Shown here: in pieces, positions 3,251 through 19,552 of the stretch
Position numbering within the stretch: the first letter of the stretch is position 1
How the letters are laid out: each line of letters starts with the position of its first letter
Virus record (IMG/VR): IMGVR_UViG_2706796243_000001
Length of the DNA stretch: 64,000 nt
DNA from: a virus
Lineage: Duplodnaviria > Heunggongvirae > Uroviricota > Caudoviricetes
Direction: 5' to 3' (one strand)
The notes under the pieces: generated by a model
What the model saw: only the letters and a program-made list of their open reading frames with translations
Told to the model about the DNA's origin: nothing
Databases searched by the model: none
Position numbers and translations under genes: made by a program

Positions 3251-3275
3251 TCACCAAGTCCGGATCGGTTATCTT
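3247..3275 (+). promoter_or_regulatory. PeSL-type promoter TTGATC-17(..CGGATCGGT)-TATCTT
   Basis: The conserved CGGATCGGT spacer core is shared with the promoters at 4400 and 8473. Confidence 0.5.
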
Positions 3276-3282
3276 ACTAACA

Positions 3283-3302
3283 AGCCGGGGACGCGCCCCG
3301 GC
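3283..3302 (+). repeat. PeSL stem-loop GCCGGGG-ACGC-CCCCGGC
   Basis: Perfect GC-rich inverted repeat in the 5' leader of the next ORF. Confidence 0.7.
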
Positions 3303-3322
3303 ACTAACGAGAGGTAAACAAA

Positions 3323-3562
3323 ATGGAAACATTATTGATTGACAATGACGGGTCTTTGTTGGCGGAAGTTACGGCGATTGACGCGCCTTTGTGGTGGCAA
3401 CAAAAGGGGCTAACCAAAACCCGATCCGGGTATGGGACCAAGATCCCTACACAATGGAAAGTTAATTTCCAGGGGCGTGATCGTCGGGTATACGTTGATC
3501 AATATAGTAACGCCGGACACACTTATATAATTGTGAAAGGTCAAAAAATAACTGTAAGATAA
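3323..3562 (+). CDS. hypothetical protein (79 aa)
   Basis: GAGAGGTAAACAAAATG RBS/start. Confidence 0.5.
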   Translation: METLLIDNDGSLLAEVTAIDAPLWWQQKGLTKTRSGYGTKIPTQWKVNFQGRDRRVYVDQYSNAGHTYIIVKGQKITVR

Positions 3563-3565
3563 TTG

Positions 3566-3595
3566 TTGACGCTGGCTAATGTGTGGGGTTATAAT
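3566..3595 (+). promoter_or_regulatory. sigma70-like promoter TTGACG-18-TATAAT
   Basis: Consensus hexamers upstream of the 3647 start. Confidence 0.55.
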
Positions 3596-3646
3596 CTCCA
3601 CACATTGACAAGCGAAACAAATCAACCACACAAACGAGGTTACACC

Positions 3647-4398
<752 letters not shown>

Positions 4399-5062: not shown

Positions 5063-5158
5063 TTGTTGACTCTTAATAGGTGGGGCTTTAAGATAAGCCC
5101 TACCAAGTAAGAGAAATAACCCGGCAATAATGCCAAACCAAACAAAAGGTAAATTATC

Positions 5159-5725
5159 ATGAATAACAAAATCACTTTCAACGATCAAGATGTTGCCGTT
5201 TTCAACTTCCTGAAAGAAAAAGGGATTGATTTTAAAGCGGTATATGGTGGCGTTAACAACGATCCAGAATGGCAAGCTGATTTGTTTTTCGTGAGTTTCG
5301 AAAAAGGCGGGAAGATTTACCGCTCTGAATTTAAAACGGGAACGGGTCACCGTGTAGGCCGTCACACTGGCTTAACCCCAACCGACGCAAGAGAATTAGC
5401 TAAAGTTGATGCTAAGGTTTCCATCGTTGATCAAAATAACTGGACACGCGACGATTACAAGCGCAACGACAATAAAGCAATGTCTTTCGGTTACCGTGTT
5501 TATGTTGCGACACCTTGCGCCGCAAACGTGCTTTCCTGCCTGCTGTCAGATATTGATCTGGGATCTGAATCTCATGCTGATTTTTGCGCTAATATGGGCT
5601 ATGATGAGGATAGCCGCAAAGGTTTAGAGATTTATCTTGCTTGTCAGAAGACGGGCGAGGAACTCCGCAAAGTGTTTACAGGTGAAGACCTGGAGACACT
5701 CCGCGAGATGTTAGAGGATTATTAA
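5159..5725 (+). CDS. hypothetical protein (188 aa)
   Basis: AAAAGGTAAATTATCATG RBS/start, preceded by a TTGACT promoter-like sequence and the hairpin GGGCTT/AAGCCC (5082-5100). Confidence 0.55.
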   Translation: MNNKITFNDQDVAVFNFLKEKGIDFKAVYGGVNNDPEWQADLFFVSFEKGGKIYRSEFKTGTGHRVGRHTGLTPTDARELAKVDAKVSIVDQNNWTRDDYKRNDNKAMSFGYRVYVATPCAANVLSCLLSDIDLGSESHADFCANMGYDEDSRKGLEIYLACQKTGEELRKVFTGEDLETLREMLEDY

Positions 5726-6091: not shown

Positions 6092-6295
6092 ATGCGCAAC
6101 ATTGAAAAGATGACAAGCAAGCGTGATCGCCTGGCATATGGGGAAGTAAACGAGCGACGCCAGCGAAACGACAAACTACACAAGCCGGAGCGCATCGCCA
6201 AAACCTGGACGCCGGACCGCTACGATCCAAATCTTAACAAGCGGTTAGCCGAAAGAAAGCGCGCTTTACAGTGGCAAGCCGTACAAGATGATTAA
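6092..6295 (+). CDS. hypothetical basic small protein (67 aa)
   Basis: GAGGG RBS; Arg/Lys-rich. Confidence 0.4.
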   Translation: MRNIEKMTSKRDRLAYGEVNERRQRNDKLHKPERIAKTWTPDRYDPNLNKRLAERKRALQWQAVQDD

Positions 6296-6302
6296 ACGAA
6301 AG

Positions 6303-6327
6303 GCCGGGATAATTCCCGGCTTTTTCT
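6303..6327 (+). terminator. rho-independent terminator (GGCCGGGA-TAAT-TCCCGGC + TTTTTCT)
   Basis: GC hairpin of the PeSL hairpin family followed by a T-run. Confidence 0.7.
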
Positions 6328-6560
6328 ATGCAGAAAAGTGAATTTAAGGAGATCTCCGCGAGGTGATGCACTTGCCAGGGTCAAGCCTGGAAGCGCTTAG
6401 AAAGCGTTTTAGAGCGTTTTGCAGGGTATGACATAACCCCGCCACGCTCAAAGGCCCTTAAATTTAGTAACGCAGTGAAACTATCTGCATAATTGTCGCT
6501 ATTCATGCAAAATCGCTGCATATGAGAACAATTCTCAACAAAAATAATTTAAAATAGTGC

Positions 6561-6589
6561 TTGCGTCCTGCTGTGGTTATGTTATCTTT
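6561..6589 (+). promoter_or_regulatory. sigma70-like promoter TTGCGT-17-TATCTT
   Basis: Hexamers upstream of the 6640 ORF. Confidence 0.4.
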
Positions 6590-6639
6590 AATGCGTAGGG
6601 CGGCAATGGTGCCAACCACACAAACCAAAGGTAAATAAA

Positions 6640-6924
6640 ATGCAAAACGTAAAATCTCAGATCGCGGCGCTTGAATCTCAATTCCTGGGTAAAATGGTTT
6701 ACCACAATTACGGGCAAATCGGTTTCGGTGTGGTTACTGGCATTGATGACCGTGATCCGCTTAAATTACGTTTGCGTGTTAAGTTTACCCGCCACAATAC
6801 CCCTGAGCATATCAAAAAATATGACAACCGGGCGGATCGTGTTCGTTGCCTCTTGCCTCAATCGGTCACGGTTTCCCGTGTACGTTATGAGGATTACAAC
6901 CGCACAAACCAGATCAAAAAATAA
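6640..6924 (+). CDS. hypothetical protein (94 aa)
   Basis: CAAAGGTAAATAAAATG RBS/start. Confidence 0.5.
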   Translation: MQNVKSQIAALESQFLGKMVYHNYGQIGFGVVTGIDDRDPLKLRLRVKFTRHNTPEHIKKYDNRADRVRCLLPQSVTVSRVRYEDYNRTNQIKK

Positions 6925-6927
6925 CGC

Positions 6928-6955
6928 TTGACACCCGCGCCGCTTATGCTATGAT
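6928..6955 (+). promoter_or_regulatory. sigma70-like promoter TTGACA-16-TATGAT
   Basis: Hexamers directly after the stop of the 6640 ORF. Confidence 0.45.
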
Positions 6956-7000
6956 TCTACATAGGCGGCAACGGTGCCACCACAAACGAGGGTAAACAAA

Positions 7001-7104: not shown

Positions 7105-7323
7105 ATGTTCGGATTTATTGTAATGGCTTGTCACATTTCCCTTACGACCATGAAATTAGAGTGTAATTGGATTGTAAAGGAAACTTTTACAGAAGAAAAG
7201 GCTTGCAACGTGTACGAAAACAGCTATAATCTTCTGAAAGGCGAGCAATTCGGCCTTTGTGATGAGTTGAAAGATGGCGCTAAAAAAGGCGACAAAACCC
7301 AAATTCTTTACCTGAAAAAATAA
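7105..7323 (+). CDS. hypothetical protein (72 aa; ATG 7105)
   Basis: GAGGATAATTGATCATG. Confidence 0.4.
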   Translation: MFGFIVMACHISLTTMKLECNWIVKETFTEEKACNVYENSYNLLKGEQFGLCDELKDGAKKGDKTQILYLKK

Positions 7324-7333
7324 GGTTAATCAA

Positions 7334-7519
7334 ATGTTTGAAGTTTTCGCGGGTATCTGTTTTTATGGCGCATCTATGATGATGCAATGTGATGATTTTG
7401 TTATTGAATCATACGATGATCCGCTATCTTGCGAGATCGCCGCTAGTGGTTTACGCCGTGATCCTGATTATATCAATCCGGCCTGTATTCCTTCGCCAGA
7501 AGTGGAACCAATGCCATAA
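7334..7519 (+). CDS. hypothetical small acidic protein (61 aa)
   Basis: AAGG upstream of the ATG. Confidence 0.4.
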   Translation: MFEVFAGICFYGASMMMQCDDFVIESYDDPLSCEIAASGLRRDPDYINPACIPSPEVEPMP

Positions 7520-7565
7520 AAACATTTGACAACGGCGATCCGTTGATCAATAATTACCAGACAAG

Positions 7566-14129: not shown

Positions 14130-14395
14130 ACAATCTCCTTCAGTGGTTGAAAACTGACTGGTAGTGTACCACCGTTAACCCATTTTAAGCAATCATTATA
14201 TCCAGGCAGTCTCTTTTCACCACCCATGCCTTTGTACACCCACGGGATGTATGAGCTTTTGAACTCACGTTTACCACTCTCAGACTGGTAATACAGCCAC
14301 ATACCCTTTTCATTTGTTCCTTCATCTATCCAGCGGATCACCCAATCTGAAGTGCCGATCATTTTCAGTTTTCTTCGTTTAAACCACCCAAACAT
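14126..14395 (-). CDS. hypothetical protein (89 aa)
   Basis: ORF. Confidence 0.4.
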   Translation of the reverse strand: MFGWFKRRKLKMIGTSDWVIRWIDEGTNEKGMWLYYQSESGKREFKSSYIPWVYKGMGGEKRLPGYNDCLKWVNGGTLPVSFQPLKEIV

Positions 14396-14571
14396 TCTGG
14401 TCTCCTTTCAACGTATCGCCATGTTTTCTTGTAGTGTGCAATAACTTCTGCTGTCTTGTCAAGAGGAACACCTGATTTTATAAGCCTCCACTCCCCATCC
14501 AACGAACAACCGTCGCTGCTCATCCTGCCATAAATACTGTACTTCATCTGACCCCCTTGCGTAATCTCCAT
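14365..14571 (-). CDS. hypothetical protein (68 aa)
   Basis: ORF. Confidence 0.35.
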   Translation of the reverse strand: MEITQGGQMKYSIYGRMSSDGCSLDGEWRLIKSGVPLDKTAEVIAHYKKTWRYVERRPECLGGLNEEN

Positions 14572-14667
14572 ATCTGTATTATGACATCAAGAAATAAAGT
14601 GTCAAGTGTTGACCGCAAATGAATTTGTTGGTATGCTCCCCACATAGATTTTAGAGGAGGGATTATT

Positions 14668-16071
14668 TTGAACTACAGTGATTTTGGCGTTACTTGTGCA
14701 GAAGAACTTGAGCAGGATGAGTGGAGTTTGTCGAGGCCGACCTTTGAGACACCAAAAGGCGGCGTGTTGACTGTTGTGGGGTATAATGGCAGGTATCGGA
14801 GAGAGAAAAAATACACTGTCCACTGTTCGGAATGTGAAAAGGATAAGGAATTATTTGGGGATGGGTTGTTTTCTACAATCAGATCAAATCTTTCCACATT
14901 GGGCCAAATCCCTTGTGGGTGCTCACATGCCTACAGGAGAAATAATTCTCAGTACAAGATCGTTATAGAAAGGAAACTGCCTGAAGGTATTACCTTCCAC
15001 CCGGCTAATCTTTTATCCCCAATAAGGTCTAAAACCAGAATAACACTTGTATGTGAGAAACACGGTGAGTTTAAGGATAGCCCTAGCAACATCTTGAATT
15101 TTGGTGGTCGTTGTGCCAAATGTGGATATGAGAGTGCTTCCAAAAAAAGGTCCCTTAATGAAGAAGACATATTTTGCAGATTGCCCGGCCACATGGAGTT
15201 CGTCGGGAGAAAGGATGGTAAATTTATCTTGAGGTGCAAAAGTCACGGTTTGGAGGTATCTGACAAGCATCTTTCTAGGATTTCTAAGGGTTGTAGATTG
15301 TGTGGTAATGAAAGAACCTCTTTAGCAAGAGCGGTTGATGAAGAGCAACTTATTGAAAGATGTTTATCAGCCTGTATCTCAAAAGGTGCAGGTTATGATA
15401 AGTTGGTCTACTCTCCACGAGGTGTTTTTTACTCTTCACTCTATATTACCTGCCAAAAGCATGGCACTTTATGCAAGTCAGGGTCTTCGTTGGTAAATTT
15501 CATACACAAGGGTGACAAGGGGTTTTGCTGGGAGTGCAGAAGAGAAGCAATCCGTGAGAAGAGATGGTTGAAAGATCTGAAAGCCAGGGTTGTAGATTTT
15601 TGTAACCGGGTGGGTGTATCCTTCTTGCGTTTTGAAAAAATAAATGGTGTTTCAAGCTGTTTGCGACTACTGTGCAGTGAGCACGGTGAGTACACTACAA
15701 GCTACGGAAGCCTTAGACAGCTCTCTGGATGTCCATCATGCGCAGGTCATTCTCAACGGCAGTGTTATTTGCATCAGGTTTTCGACCAAGCGACACCTCA
15801 AGGTATTAAATTCGGGATAGCAAAGGATTGGGTGGTGAGATTAAGGAATTTGAACAATAAGAATCTCTTTCAAATGGAAAACTTGGGTGTTTGGGAATTT
15901 GATACAGTGTATAGCTGTAAGGCCGCAGAGAGAGAATGTAAACAAACCCTTAAAACAGGTGTCCTTTCCGCCCGTGAGATGAAAGATGGTTGGACAGAGA
16001 CCGTCTCTGTGCTAGACTTAGAAAAAGTCATCGCCATTTATGAAAAACATGGCGGCAAACGCATAAAATAA
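14668..16071 (+). CDS. protein with five tandem C-x2-HG...C-x2-C zinc-ribbon repeats fused to a C-terminal T5orf172/MUG113 (GIY-YIG-related) domain
   Basis: Strong RBS GAGGAGGG. The C..HGxF...C..CG module repeats five times. The C-terminus reads IKFGIAKD..RLRNLN...DGWTETVSV, matching the T5orf172 pattern KIG.T.....Rl..l......dGwTE.F. It is a plus-strand gene inside a minus-strand block. Confidence 0.6.
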   Translation: MNYSDFGVTCAEELEQDEWSLSRPTFETPKGGVLTVVGYNGRYRREKKYTVHCSECEKDKELFGDGLFSTIRSNLSTLGQIPCGCSHAYRRNNSQYKIVIERKLPEGITFHPANLLSPIRSKTRITLVCEKHGEFKDSPSNILNFGGRCAKCGYESASKKRSLNEEDIFCRLPGHMEFVGRKDGKFILRCKSHGLEVSDKHLSRISKGCRLCGNERTSLARAVDEEQLIERCLSACISKGAGYDKLVYSPRGVFYSSLYITCQKHGTLCKSGSSLVNFIHKGDKGFCWECRREAIREKRWLKDLKARVVDFCNRVGVSFLRFEKINGVSSCLRLLCSEHGEYTTSYGSLRQLSGCPSCAGHSQRQCYLHQVFDQATPQGIKFGIAKDWVVRLRNLNNKNLFQMENLGVWEFDTVYSCKAAERECKQTLKTGVLSAREMKDGWTETVSVLDLEKVIAIYEKHGGKRIK

Positions 16072-16086
16072 CAAGAGGAGAATAGT

Positions 16087-16398
16087 ATGCTTTCATTAGA
16101 AGATAAAGGTGGGCGTCCAGACCGTAACGAACCAGATCAACGTGTTCGCCAGGATACCATTTGCCTGATATACGGATTTAGCCCAGAGAATCCTTTGACA
16201 GGGCAGTTGAACGGGAGGGAATGTTACGTTATCCAAAGGTCGCAACTTGGACCGGACAGGATTCCTTATGGCCCTGATGAGATGTGGTTCGAATGCCACG
16301 TAAGGGGTGTTCCGGTCACACCCGATCTCCCAATACATCACCTAATGCTTCTTGATGACTCGGACAGACTGGTGATTGAAAAATTATCCATTCAATAG
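16087..16398 (+). CDS. hypothetical protein (103 aa)
   Basis: GGAGAATAGTATG RBS; co-oriented with the 14668 gene. Confidence 0.4.
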   Translation: MLSLEDKGGRPDRNEPDQRVRQDTICLIYGFSPENPLTGQLNGRECYVIQRSQLGPDRIPYGPDEMWFECHVRGVPVTPDLPIHHLMLLDDSDRLVIEKLSIQ

Positions 16399-16405
16399 AT
16401 AAAAG

Positions 16406-16430
16406 AAAACCCGCTCAAGGCGGGTTTTCT
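16406..16430. terminator. bidirectional rho-independent terminator AAAACCCGC-TCAAG-GCGGGTTTT
   Basis: Perfect hairpin flanked by A and T runs between convergent genes. Confidence 0.7.
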
Positions 16431-16924
16431 TATGCACTAAGGACTATAACTTTCTCTTTGTTGGCAGAAACATACTGCTCAACAAGCTTACCAGACAGAA
16501 TCCTTTCAAGAAGCCTACCGGGGAACCTACCAAACTTCTTCATCAGTAAATCGAAGTCAACACCTTTAGTCATTCTCAGCATAGCTGCCTCCTCATCAGT
16601 TGGGGAGGCGGGATCAAGGAACATATCCCTGCTGTAAACTTCTTTATCACCTATATAAACATTGTCAGGGTATACCCAGATATGTTCATCCTTGTTTGTG
16701 ACCATTTTAAAGATTTGCTCATCCTTACCAGGACTTCTTGTTACTATCAGCTTTGGGTAGATAATACCATCAACTACTGAGGTGTGTTTTCCCTGCACAG
16801 TAAGGATTACCGACCATTCAGATCCTGAGTTAACCCCAGACACTGCACCTGCAATACCGGGCAATCCGCAAATCATTTGGTGATTTGTATCTCTGACAAA
16901 CGATCTTATTAACTCTTTTTGCAT
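16430..16924 (-). CDS. hypothetical protein (164 aa)
   Basis: ORF; no motif recognised. Confidence 0.5.
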   Translation of the reverse strand: MQKELIRSFVRDTNHQMICGLPGIAGAVSGVNSGSEWSVILTVQGKHTSVVDGIIYPKLIVTRSPGKDEQIFKMVTNKDEHIWVYPDNVYIGDKEVYSRDMFLDPASPTDEEAAMLRMTKGVDFDLLMKKFGRFPGRLLERILSGKLVEQYVSANKEKVIVLSA

Positions 16925-17304
16925 AGGGTCTCCAAATCCTTAATCCATTGGAACTTATCAGTGTAAATCATCTGGTTCTTTTTGCTACGGTTTAATTTTG
17001 CGGGGATGACCTGGATGTTATCACCACAGTTAAGGCCAGAAACAATCTTTGCACGGAGGGGCAGCATGTGGTCGGACTCCCAACGGATGCCCGTTTCACG
17101 CATCCTCTCGTTGCAAAGAGTGTTGGCCTCTTCCCTGACGAAGATGTCCCATTCACTGTTCATAGTTGCACGTTTTTCTGCCTCAATACGGTCAAGGCGG
17201 ATCTGAAGCTGCCGTGCCTTACCCTCTGGTGTGGAACGACGCAAGCGATCTATTTCCCGTCTACGGGCAGCGTACATTTTGTAGTAATCTCCTCTGTCTC
17301 TCAC
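16909..17304 (-). CDS. HNH endonuclease-domain protein
   Basis: WESDHMLPL...CGDNIQVIPAKLNRSK matches the HNH His-Me finger DH..P.......N....C..CNR.K. Confidence 0.55.
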   Translation of the reverse strand: MRDRGDYYKMYAARRREIDRLRRSTPEGKARQLQIRLDRIEAEKRATMNSEWDIFVREEANTLCNERMRETGIRWESDHMLPLRAKIVSGLNCGDNIQVIPAKLNRSKKNQMIYTDKFQWIKDLETLCKKS

Positions 17305-18472: not shown

Positions 18473-19552
18473 TCAAGCATCGATCTTGGCCCAGCAGATA
18501 TCTTGAGCGGTCATAAGTACACGAGCGGCGAGTTCAAGATCGGTTGTTTTTGGGAGATCTGTCTTTTTGTACAGGTCTTCTCGGATATAACGATCTTTCT
18601 CGTCAGCCCAAGCAAGAAGCTCTTCAAGGGTCCACTTGCCACCACGGATATCAAGCAGTTCCTGAGCGTCAGGCCGCTTAACCAGAACTTTACCGTCAGT
18701 AAGAATCTCTTCCGCCATACGCATCAGGCGCACGAGGTGCATCGCATGTTTGGTATCGTATCCGAACTGGACTTCGAGTTCATGACGAGCCTCATTGCGA
18801 TTTTCCTTCCACGTCCAGTAGTTCCGGTGCTTCTCTTTCGCCAGCTTGTGCTCTTCTGCCAGATATTTTACGATAAACAAAGGCTTACGCTTTTTATCCG
18901 CATCGGTCAGTTGCTGGTAATCGACATTACGAATCGATCCGTCAGCATTGAATAGGCCAGAACTATTAAAGTTCTCCATCACACCGTAAACGTTGTTACC
19001 GTAAGGTACGAGGATGCAGAAGCTGTTCAGGCCGTCCAGTGCCTGCATGAAATCCTCATGTTTCAGTAACGGGTGCTCGCTGTAGTTATGCACCAAGCGG
19101 AAAAACTCCTTCTGGGTTGGCTTTGCTTCAGGTTGTGGATTGCTGATCCACTTATCGTGACCACGAATACGCTTAAGCTGTGCCATTGCATAGCCTGAGA
19201 AGCTAAAGGCCACCTTGCTCGATAGCAGTTCTGGTGCCATTGTACGTAGATAGTCATACGCATCAGAGCTTTGCAGAATATCCTTCTCATCTACGAACAT
19301 AAGCTCGATGATGTTGGGGTTCATCTCCACGAAAAGCTTCATGAAGTTTGTCAGTTCATAAATCTTCCCATCTTCTTCGTCAGCAAGGGTTTGCTCCTTG
19401 ATATTGAAGAATGGTGTGCGGATGAACTTCGGTTCTGCACAGAAAAGCCCTCGGATATCGGTATCCGATGTTGGGAGGTTAGTCCCATAAGCGATGCTGC
19501 CAGAGTAGCAACGCATCAAGTCTACAGTTTTCATATTTCTCCTTAAGAGCAA
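18473..19552 (-). CDS. Pol-beta-superfamily nucleotidyltransferase, C-terminal helical region with an R-x4-H (HEPN-like) motif
   Basis: N-terminal SGSIAYGTNLPTSDTDIRG matches the minimal NTase signature G[GS]x9-13Dx[DE]; downstream RNEARH. Confidence 0.55.
   Translation of the reverse strand: MLLRRNMKTVDLMRCYSGSIAYGTNLPTSDTDIRGLFCAEPKFIRTPFFNIKEQTLADEEDGKIYELTNFMKLFVEMNPNIIELMFVDEKDILQSSDAYDYLRTMAPELLSSKVAFSFSGYAMAQLKRIRGHDKWISNPQPEAKPTQKEFFRLVHNYSEHPLLKHEDFMQALDGLNSFCILVPYGNNVYGVMENFNSSGLFNADGSIRNVDYQQLTDADKKRKPLFIVKYLAEEHKLAKEKHRNYWTWKENRNEARHELEVQFGYDTKHAMHLVRLMRMAEEILTDGKVLVKRPDAQELLDIRGGKWTLEELLAWADEKDRYIREDLYKKTDLPKTTDLELAARVLMTAQDICWAKIDA

Follow-up and report, generated by a model that had tools for sequence, protein, structure and literature searches.

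The 64,000-nucleotide stretch of viral DNA analysed here (record IMGVR_UViG_2706796243_000001; hereafter, the window) carries a plus-strand gene, gp153, that is probably a free-standing homing endonuclease gene (HEG) of the T5orf172 branch of the GIY-YIG superfamily, either active or recently active. The 5 kb around the locus matches Salmonella phage SSE121 (Seunavirus, Vequintavirinae) at 100% identity, and the open reading frame (ORF; 14668–16071, plus strand, TTG start) is gp153 of that phage; RefSeq calls it 'endonuclease' and UniRef 'CapR homology domain-containing protein'. Its coordinates and length (467 aa) had been given correctly in a preliminary description of the window made from the letters alone. 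The evidence comes from the identities of the protein domains and their predicted fold, the conservation of putative catalytic and zinc-ligand residues, the presence or absence of the gene at a fixed locus, and the mosaicism of its alleles. The family and its architecture are known already; what is new is a divergent member from Seunavirus.

In the mechanism envisaged, five independently folded zinc modules (one CapR, four DUF723-like) would bind a long, asymmetric DNA target, and the C-terminal GIY-YIG-type domain would cut near it. When a nuclease-less relative (of the KE22 or PVP-SE1 type) infects the same cell, its cut allele would be repaired with the nuclease-bearing genome as template and so acquire the gene. 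Placed after a plus-strand promoter that already existed and ahead of the first gene of the ancestral unit (gp173 in PVP-SE1, gp154 in SSE121), the nuclease gene would be expressed with no backbone gene interrupted. Recombination would swap the variable zinc array between the conserved ends, as in the allele of phage SalP219, presumably changing target specificity.

Zinc modules and nuclease domain of gp153

The 'endonuclease' profile phrog_681 of the PHROGs database spans essentially all of gp153 (E 1.2e-86, aa 12–465 against profile positions 88–541 of 576). Five Cys/His clusters are present, as the preliminary description had noted, but the single pattern it gave for all of them needs slight correction. 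The first is of the form C-x2-C-x26-C-x-C (ligands C53/C56/C83/C85), and the other four follow C-x2-H-G-x14-20-C-x2-C, with ligands C129/H132/C149/C152, C190/H193/C209/C212, C262/H265/C287/C290 and C336/H339/C355/C358. Conservation and module hidden Markov models (HMMs) were taken from a 60-sequence family alignment. The four ligands of module 1 are invariant there and fit the motif CxxC-x24-26-CxC. The remaining ligands are invariant or at least 90% conserved, except (C290 apart) those of modules 3 and 4, which are missing from most of the homologues; just four sequences align across module 4. The module-2 HMM matches modules 3, 4 and 5 at 5.7e-8, 5e-7 and 2.7e-13, respectively, and the module-5 HMM matches modules 2, 3 and 4 at 5.8e-12, 4e-6 and 3e-3. 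Ligand conservation together with these cross-matches argues that the array is more than a chance pattern of Cys and His. Judged by the profiles, modules 2–5 are mutually homologous, and module 1 is of a different type, at most distantly related to them. The repeats of SSE121 are recognisable at the protein-profile level only, being too diverged for detection as nucleotide repeats.

Module 1 (aa 25–86) matches the Pfam CapR family (PF21817) well above threshold (E 4.8e-15, 55.9 bits, gathering cutoff 24.2). DUF723 (PF05265) matches module 5 only, and below threshold (E 0.02, 15.2 bits, cutoff 20.9); the allele of phage KPP-1 clears that cutoff with 38.3 bits, and PF05265 appears, together with CapR, in the precomputed annotation of gp153 and of nearly all its homologues. 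The AlphaFold2 (AF2) model of gp153 has a mean predicted local distance difference test score (pLDDT) of 82. In the well-modelled modules, a β-hairpin leads to the first ligand pair; a third strand and then a short helix follow, and the second pair sits where a helix starts, a predicted treble-clef-like arrangement. A Foldseek search of the PDB with the full-length model found nothing significant (HIGLE/Slx1 alone, at low significance), so the zinc modules are explained by no solved structure.

Assignment of the C-terminus through Pfam failed when attempted directly, and was resolved through relatives and fold. The last 112 aa of gp153 are 43% identical (E 5e-31) to the corresponding domain of TcgB/Gp130 of phage ICP1, which clears the Pfam gathering score for T5orf172 (21.2 against 20), a score that is an operational rather than a biological criterion. 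T5orf172 (PF10544) and MUG113 (PF13455) belong to the GIY-YIG clan. When 42 family C-termini were scanned on their own, T5orf172 was found in 23 and MUG113 in 25 (best E 3e-5), and no other family recurred. No precomputed match to either family exists among the 120 closest homologues (0/120), so Pfam-based censuses of T5orf172 miss this divergent branch.

The predicted model of the C-terminal domain has the GIY-YIG α/β fold. Residues Y367, K381, G383, R391, E421, G441, E444 and T445 are invariant in the 60 homologues; Y367 lies in a strand (365–373), R391 in a helix (388–398), and K381 and G383 in the 'YIG' position. Judged by position and spacing rather than by structural superposition, Y367 and R391 would be the catalytic Tyr and Arg and E444 the metal-binding Glu, and the distribution of the invariant residues over strand 1, strand 2, helix 1 and the loop before the last helix is consistent with the GIY/YIG/Arg/Glu set. 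PDB sequence searches with gp153 and with a C-terminal profile returned nothing meaningful. The similarity to T5orf172/MUG113 claimed in the preliminary description is therefore real, by way of relatives and a predicted GIY-YIG-type fold, and is sub-threshold for gp153 alone; the domain can be classed, transitively, as a divergent member of this group. It is probably catalytically competent, since the T5orf172 domain of ICP1 Odn cuts DNA and a Glu mutant of it is inactive (PMC8263062).

Five zinc ribbons placed ahead of T5orf172 had been described as an unrecognised architecture. On the contrary, repeated zinc fingers are typical of such proteins: CapR, DUF723 or DUF4379 fingers occur in 87% of 229 T5orf172 homing endonucleases, often in multiple copies as 'beads on a string', and their arrays show recombination and domain swapping (PMC10448857). 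The T5orf172 HEGs of Vibrio phage Helene have six repeat domains and evidence of repeat-mediated recombination (PMC10448857). The CapR finger (CxxC…CxC) has been shown to bind DNA, and the N-terminal domains of the T5orf172 homing endonucleases of ICP1 are its relatives (PMC8096241). Module number in the 120 closest homologues ranges from two to six (three in 45, four in 62, five in nine and six in two), which puts the five of gp153 at the high end, yet inside the described range (at least five in 11/120). Among viral models in BFVD, 170 match gp153 at E ≤ 0.001, most of the best ones near full length.

The insertion site and its ancestral backbone

In blastn comparison, homology to phage KE22, whose flanks are ~85–88% identical, breaks off at 14558 and picks up again at 16073, directly after the stop codon of gp153 and at the ribosome-binding site (RBS) of the small ORF that follows. 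The nuclease ORF has thus slotted in after the plus-strand promoter and ahead of the first plus-strand gene. The features of the locus are given in Table 1.

Table 1. Sequence features at the gp153 locus, in window coordinates.
Feature	Position	Strand	Basis
Nuclease cassette with leader; in SSE121 and NINP13076 (SalP219 with swapped middle), replaced by 295 unrelated bp in KE22	14559..16072	+	blastn against KE22
Predicted sigma-70-like promoter TTGACA-16-CATAAT for leftward genes; one half of divergent pair	14578..14605	-	consensus scan, 11/12
Predicted sigma-70-like promoter TTGACC-17-TATGCT with TG, 5′ of nuclease gene	14609..14637	+	consensus scan; leader conserved with FENT2 and KPP-1
Shine-Dalgarno AGGAGG, 7 nt 5′ of TTG	14655..14660	+	read directly from sequence
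gp153, zinc-finger array with T5orf172-type (GIY-YIG superfamily) endonuclease, phrog_681	14668..16071	+	ORF, profile match, annotation
Module 1 (aa 25–103), CapR homology domain, CxxC-x26-CxC zinc finger	14740..14976	+	Pfam PF21817; AF2 pLDDT >94
Module 2 (aa 106–171), DUF723-like CxxHG…CxxC zinc module	14983..15180	+	module-5 HMM; C129, H132, G133, C149 and C152 ≥90% conserved
Module 3 (aa 174–238), DUF723-like CxxHG…CxxC zinc module	15187..15381	+	module-2 and module-5 HMMs
Module 4 (aa 244–300), DUF723-like CxxHG…CxxC zinc module, least conserved	15397..15567	+	module-2 HMM
Module 5 (aa 316–362), DUF723-like CxxHG…CxxC zinc module, adjoins nuclease domain	15613..15753	+	C336 and C358 invariant; H339 and G340 ≥90% conserved; module-2 HMM
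Nuclease domain (aa 363–467), divergent T5orf172/MUG113, predicted GIY-YIG fold	15754..16068	+	homology to TcgB, family scans, conservation, predicted fold
gp154, 103 aa, phrog_13562, homologue of PVP-SE1 gp173; backbone gene	16087..16398	+	present without nuclease in KE22, PVP-SE1 and GAP31
12-bp stem-loop, bidirectional intrinsic terminator between plus-strand unit and convergent gp155; backbone	16403..16431	.	annotated in PVP-SE1

The preliminary description had taken the plus-strand orientation among minus-strand genes, the small plus-strand ORF (16087–16398) and the stem-loop that follows it (16403–16431) as the signature of an inserted element. All of these are present, but they do not mark the insertion, since PVP-SE1 and KE22 have the same plus-strand gene, divergent promoters and terminator with no nuclease. 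In PVP-SE1, the type species, the order is gp174 (−), divergent promoters, gp173 (+), terminators on both strands and gp172 (−), with rho-independent terminators annotated for both strands at the site equivalent to the stem-loop; KE22 and GAP31 have the same layout. In view of these genomes, the plus-strand island with its small ORF and bidirectional terminator is ancestral and lies outside the insertion. The small ORF and terminator as parts of a mobile element were accordingly ruled out.

The strong RBS attributed to the gene is confirmed by the AGGAGG upstream of the start, and the TTG start is also used in the aligned FENT2 and KPP-1 genes. From the plus-strand promoter through the leader, RBS and TTG, alignment with the nuclease-bearing loci of FENT2 and KPP-1 gives scores of 113–120, versus 45–58 for empty sites, which share just the generic promoter hexamers with the SSE121 leader. 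The leftward promoter is a candidate by position and homology only; divergent promoters were annotated by the PVP-SE1 authors at the equivalent position. An RBS-sequestering structure, as used by some phage homing endonucleases, was sought in the gp153 leader, and none was significant (z 0.71). No second copy of gp153 occurs elsewhere in SSE121, the record matching in a single place. Two weak promoter-like sites (9/12) lie at 15991–16018 and 16040–16069 (+), within the last 80 nt of the nuclease ORF and just 5′ of gp154; these might allow independent expression of gp154 and might contribute to conservation of the 3′ end of the nuclease gene.

Beside the divergent promoters, a 69-aa minus-strand gene (phrog_19160; gp174 in PVP-SE1) is carried by KE22, PVP-SE1, GAP31 and KPP-1 and is missing from SSE121-type phages. 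Its place corresponds to 14548–14608 in the window, against 5142–5351 of the KE22 stretch, and tblastn found no trace of a remnant in the window. Loss of gp174 as a consequence of nuclease insertion was ruled out, because KPP-1 has a gp174 homologue beside its nuclease; the two differences are therefore independent.

Neighbouring genes gave no matches in Pfam. One of them, gp156 (16909–17304, −; 131 aa), matches phrog_1035 'endonuclease VII' (E 2e-18), is so annotated in relatives and is conserved as PVP-SE1 gp171, which places another nuclease-like gene 0.85 kb away from gp153. In KE22, an extra gene of 945 nt (314 aa; KE22 stretch 3254–4198, −) lies between the homologues of gp148 and gp149, a further insertion or deletion in this accessory block; it has no PHROG match and so is not an obvious second nuclease. 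A sharp mosaic boundary is found at ~18500, at the start of the nucleotidyltransferase gene gp161 (18473–19552, −), where identity to SSE121 drops from ~99–100% to ~81% in SalP219 and from ~93% to ~82% in KE22.

Distribution and allele mosaicism

The anchor gene of the locus (the gp154 homologue) is found in 61 phage records. When its positions were cross-matched with those of nuclease matches, a phrog_681 nuclease was located directly 5′ of the anchor operon in nine phages (SSE121, NINP13076, SalP219, FENT2, KPP-1, KB57, DP, K18PH07C1 and Iguana_ER37), and a C-terminal fragment of it upstream of the operon in KP12. The gene is absent from the locus in the three relatives checked by annotation (KE22, PVP-SE1 and GAP31). 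The preliminary description had proposed a freestanding nuclease gene and a survey of its presence in related phages, and the survey bears the proposal out: the gene is polymorphic in presence rather than syntenic and universal. Occupied sites extend across two genera, FENT2 being a Seunavirus and KPP-1 a Mydovirus, and other members of the family lie at unrelated loci, such as immediately upstream of terL in ICP1. The termini of the gene and its leader are 86–90% identical in nucleotide sequence between SSE121 and KPP-1, at a site where the neighbouring backbone protein is ~54% identical, and the gene appears to have moved horizontally, independently of the backbone.

Short matches to residues ~322/332–466, covering one zinc module and the T5orf172-like domain at 41–51% identity, occur in KP12 (OM835951, 137945–138376) and in many rV5-like coliphages (~408 nt; AV123, KKE7M and EC.P2 are examples). 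They may be nucleases with a minimal, one-module build, or else what is left of longer genes. The nuclease ORF of NINP13076 (MZ326168, 161 kb) is identical to that of SSE121. Homology of this genome to SSE121 ends at window position 17032 and is followed by a second, inverted and diverged copy of the small-ORF/gp155 region (6283–6968, window 16073–16757; 79% identity) and of the gp151–152 region (7275–7550, window 14273–14548; 74%). The record may join two Seunaviruses in a chimeric assembly, or the rearrangement may be real.

SalP219 carries a different allele in an almost identical backbone. Its flanks are 98–100% identical to those of SSE121 over more than 1 kb on the left and ~2.5 kb on the right, and the stretch equivalent to 14782–15805 cannot be aligned at the DNA level; the protein has 411 aa and four modules of different make-up. 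A codon-threaded comparison of SSE121 with SalP219, FENT2 and KPP-1 gives 86–100% nucleotide identity for codons 1–30 and 421–467 (the exception being FENT2 codons 421–450, at 54% nt and 57% aa identity), and only 4–50% amino acid identity for the middle of the gene. The ends of the gene are thus younger or more constrained than the backbone, since they are 86–100% identical at the nucleotide level while the backbone protein is ~54% identical (KPP-1), and the array between them is exchanged, matching the 'domain shuffling' described by Barth et al. (PMC10448857). A more far-reaching proposal, for which the chances are low, is that the leader, the first ~30 codons and the last ~47 codons serve as fixed recombination arms around an exchangeable specificity cassette, in which CapR and DUF723 modules read DNA modularly, about one per short sub-site. 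If this were so, the nucleases of SSE121 and SalP219 would differ in target although the phages are nearly identical, and the locus would offer a natural, possibly engineerable, system for retargeting a GIY-YIG nuclease.

Alternative explanations and known systems

A number of points weigh against the interpretation of gp153 as a homing endonuclease. Bioinformatics cannot tell whether a given nuclease gene homes (PMC10448857), and homing by T5orf172 genes is itself only inferred, with no direct case as far as PMC10448857, PMC8263062 and PMC8096241 state. For gp153, we infer the binding of DNA by the modules, cleavage, the location of the target and actual homing. Searched whole against Pfam, the protein gives no T5orf172 or MUG113 match at E ≤ 1, and its isolated C-terminal domain gives a sub-threshold MUG113 match (E 0.03, 15.3 bits, cutoff 22.3) and none to T5orf172. 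Module 4 is poorly modelled by AF2 (pLDDT <50 for residues 239–289). Between SSE121 and KE22, backbone identity does not change stepwise just at the nuclease gene, where a 'boundary of exchange' was looked for; the steps lie instead at ~17000 (87% to 98%) and ~18500. Finally, the region has no more promoter-like sites than shuffled sequences lead one to expect.

Domestication would explain part of the evidence. T5orf172 nucleases have been co-opted before, as in Odn (PMC8263062; PMC10448857), and gp153 could likewise have ceased to home and instead cut competing DNA, from a satellite, the host or a co-infecting phage, the zinc array giving specificity. Its catalytic residues are intact, several lineages in two genera have kept the gene whole at one and the same promoter-proximal site, and an arms race would likewise account for the fast exchange of the DNA-binding array. 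This explanation is nevertheless unlikely: the binding part consists of generic homing-endonuclease zinc modules, not of a captured domain such as the RepA_N of Odn, a selfish element would account at least equally well for the patchiness seen among very close relatives, and neither a candidate target nor anything else speaks specifically in its favour. A somewhat weaker case can be made for a protein that is mainly a DNA-binding regulator, like PLE CapR or the autorepressor I-TevI, with the array sitting on the divergent promoter region and tuning the gp153–gp154 unit or other genes. CapR, a relative of module 1, is a promoter-binding transcriptional repressor (PMC8096241), I-TevI also acts as a repressor (PMC10448857), and the sequence of leader and promoter shows unusual conservation across nuclease-bearing loci from different genera. 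A complete nuclease domain, with putative catalytic Tyr, Arg and Glu invariant in 60 homologues, is unexpected in a pure repressor, however; close relatives thrive without the gene, and the conserved leader has no significant RNA structure (operator repeats were not looked for).

Least probable of all, and very unlikely, is that gp153 is an inactive, decaying HEG remnant or else an unrelated counter-defence factor. Decay is a common fate of such nuclease genes once they are fixed, some relatives are short and C-terminal-only (in KP12 and many rV5-like coliphages) and gp153 falls below the Pfam threshold for T5orf172; against decay, the ORF is full-length and identical in NINP13076, keeps all zinc ligands and family-invariant residues, and has a confidently predicted fold. 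No link of gp153 to defence or anti-defence systems has emerged. Because the catalytic set is intact and invariant, neither regulation nor decay is likely to describe the gene on its own, and the transcription modulator and counter-defence factor offered in the preliminary description are unlikely readings.

With a homing endonuclease as the preferred interpretation, the bare 'endonuclease' label of SSE121 gp153 can be refined to a probable T5orf172-type homing endonuclease with an array of one CapR and four DUF723-like zinc fingers, and the extent of the insertion is corrected to exclude gp154 and the terminator. The locus is convenient for homing experiments: KE22 provides a natural empty allele in closely similar flanks, SSE121 and SalP219 provide two alleles with different zinc arrays in backbones that are 98–100% identical, and divergent alleles occupy the same site in another genus. 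The KE22/SSE121/SalP219 set would permit direct tests of cleavage, of target choice and of the change in specificity on module swap.

I-TevI, the GIY-YIG homing endonuclease of phage T4, is intron-encoded and has a single zinc finger in its linker and a helix-turn-helix DNA-binding domain. Its nuclease domain is N-terminal and that of gp153 C-terminal, and PDB sequence searches detected no sequence-level homology between the two. Module 1 of gp153 (aa 25–86) shares with PLE CapR the CxxC-x24-26-CxC motif required there for DNA binding, but gp153 keeps a complete nuclease domain and four more zinc modules, unlike CapR, a satellite-encoded repressor and domesticated derivative (PMC8096241). Like ICP1 Odn (Gp88), gp153 has a T5orf172 nuclease domain with catalytic Arg and Glu (putative in gp153); the DNA-binding domain of Odn, in contrast, is a RepA_N captured from the target satellite, and Odn is an anti-satellite weapon and not a homing enzyme (PMC8263062). 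By description, the long tandem array of related zinc-finger repeats before T5orf172 resembles that of the Helene HEGs (PMC10448857).

From the genes surveyed in PMC10448857, gp153 differs in coming from a Salmonella Seunavirus, a group absent from the main text there, and in a nuclease domain too divergent for the Pfam T5orf172/MUG113 models used there. It also differs from ICP1 in lying in a small accessory plus-strand unit rather than adjoining an essential gene such as terL. With the CapR-containing T5orf172 HEGs of ICP1 (TcgB/Gp130, Gp121, Gp165, Gp174 and Gp53) and the wider set of 229, it shares the plan of N-terminal zinc modules, often repeated, followed by a C-terminal T5orf172 domain, and residues 133–467 align with TcgB at 27% identity (E 9e-21). 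It resembles the ICP1 genes also in being free-standing and patchily distributed, with recombination of the array and domain swapping between alleles (PMC10448857).

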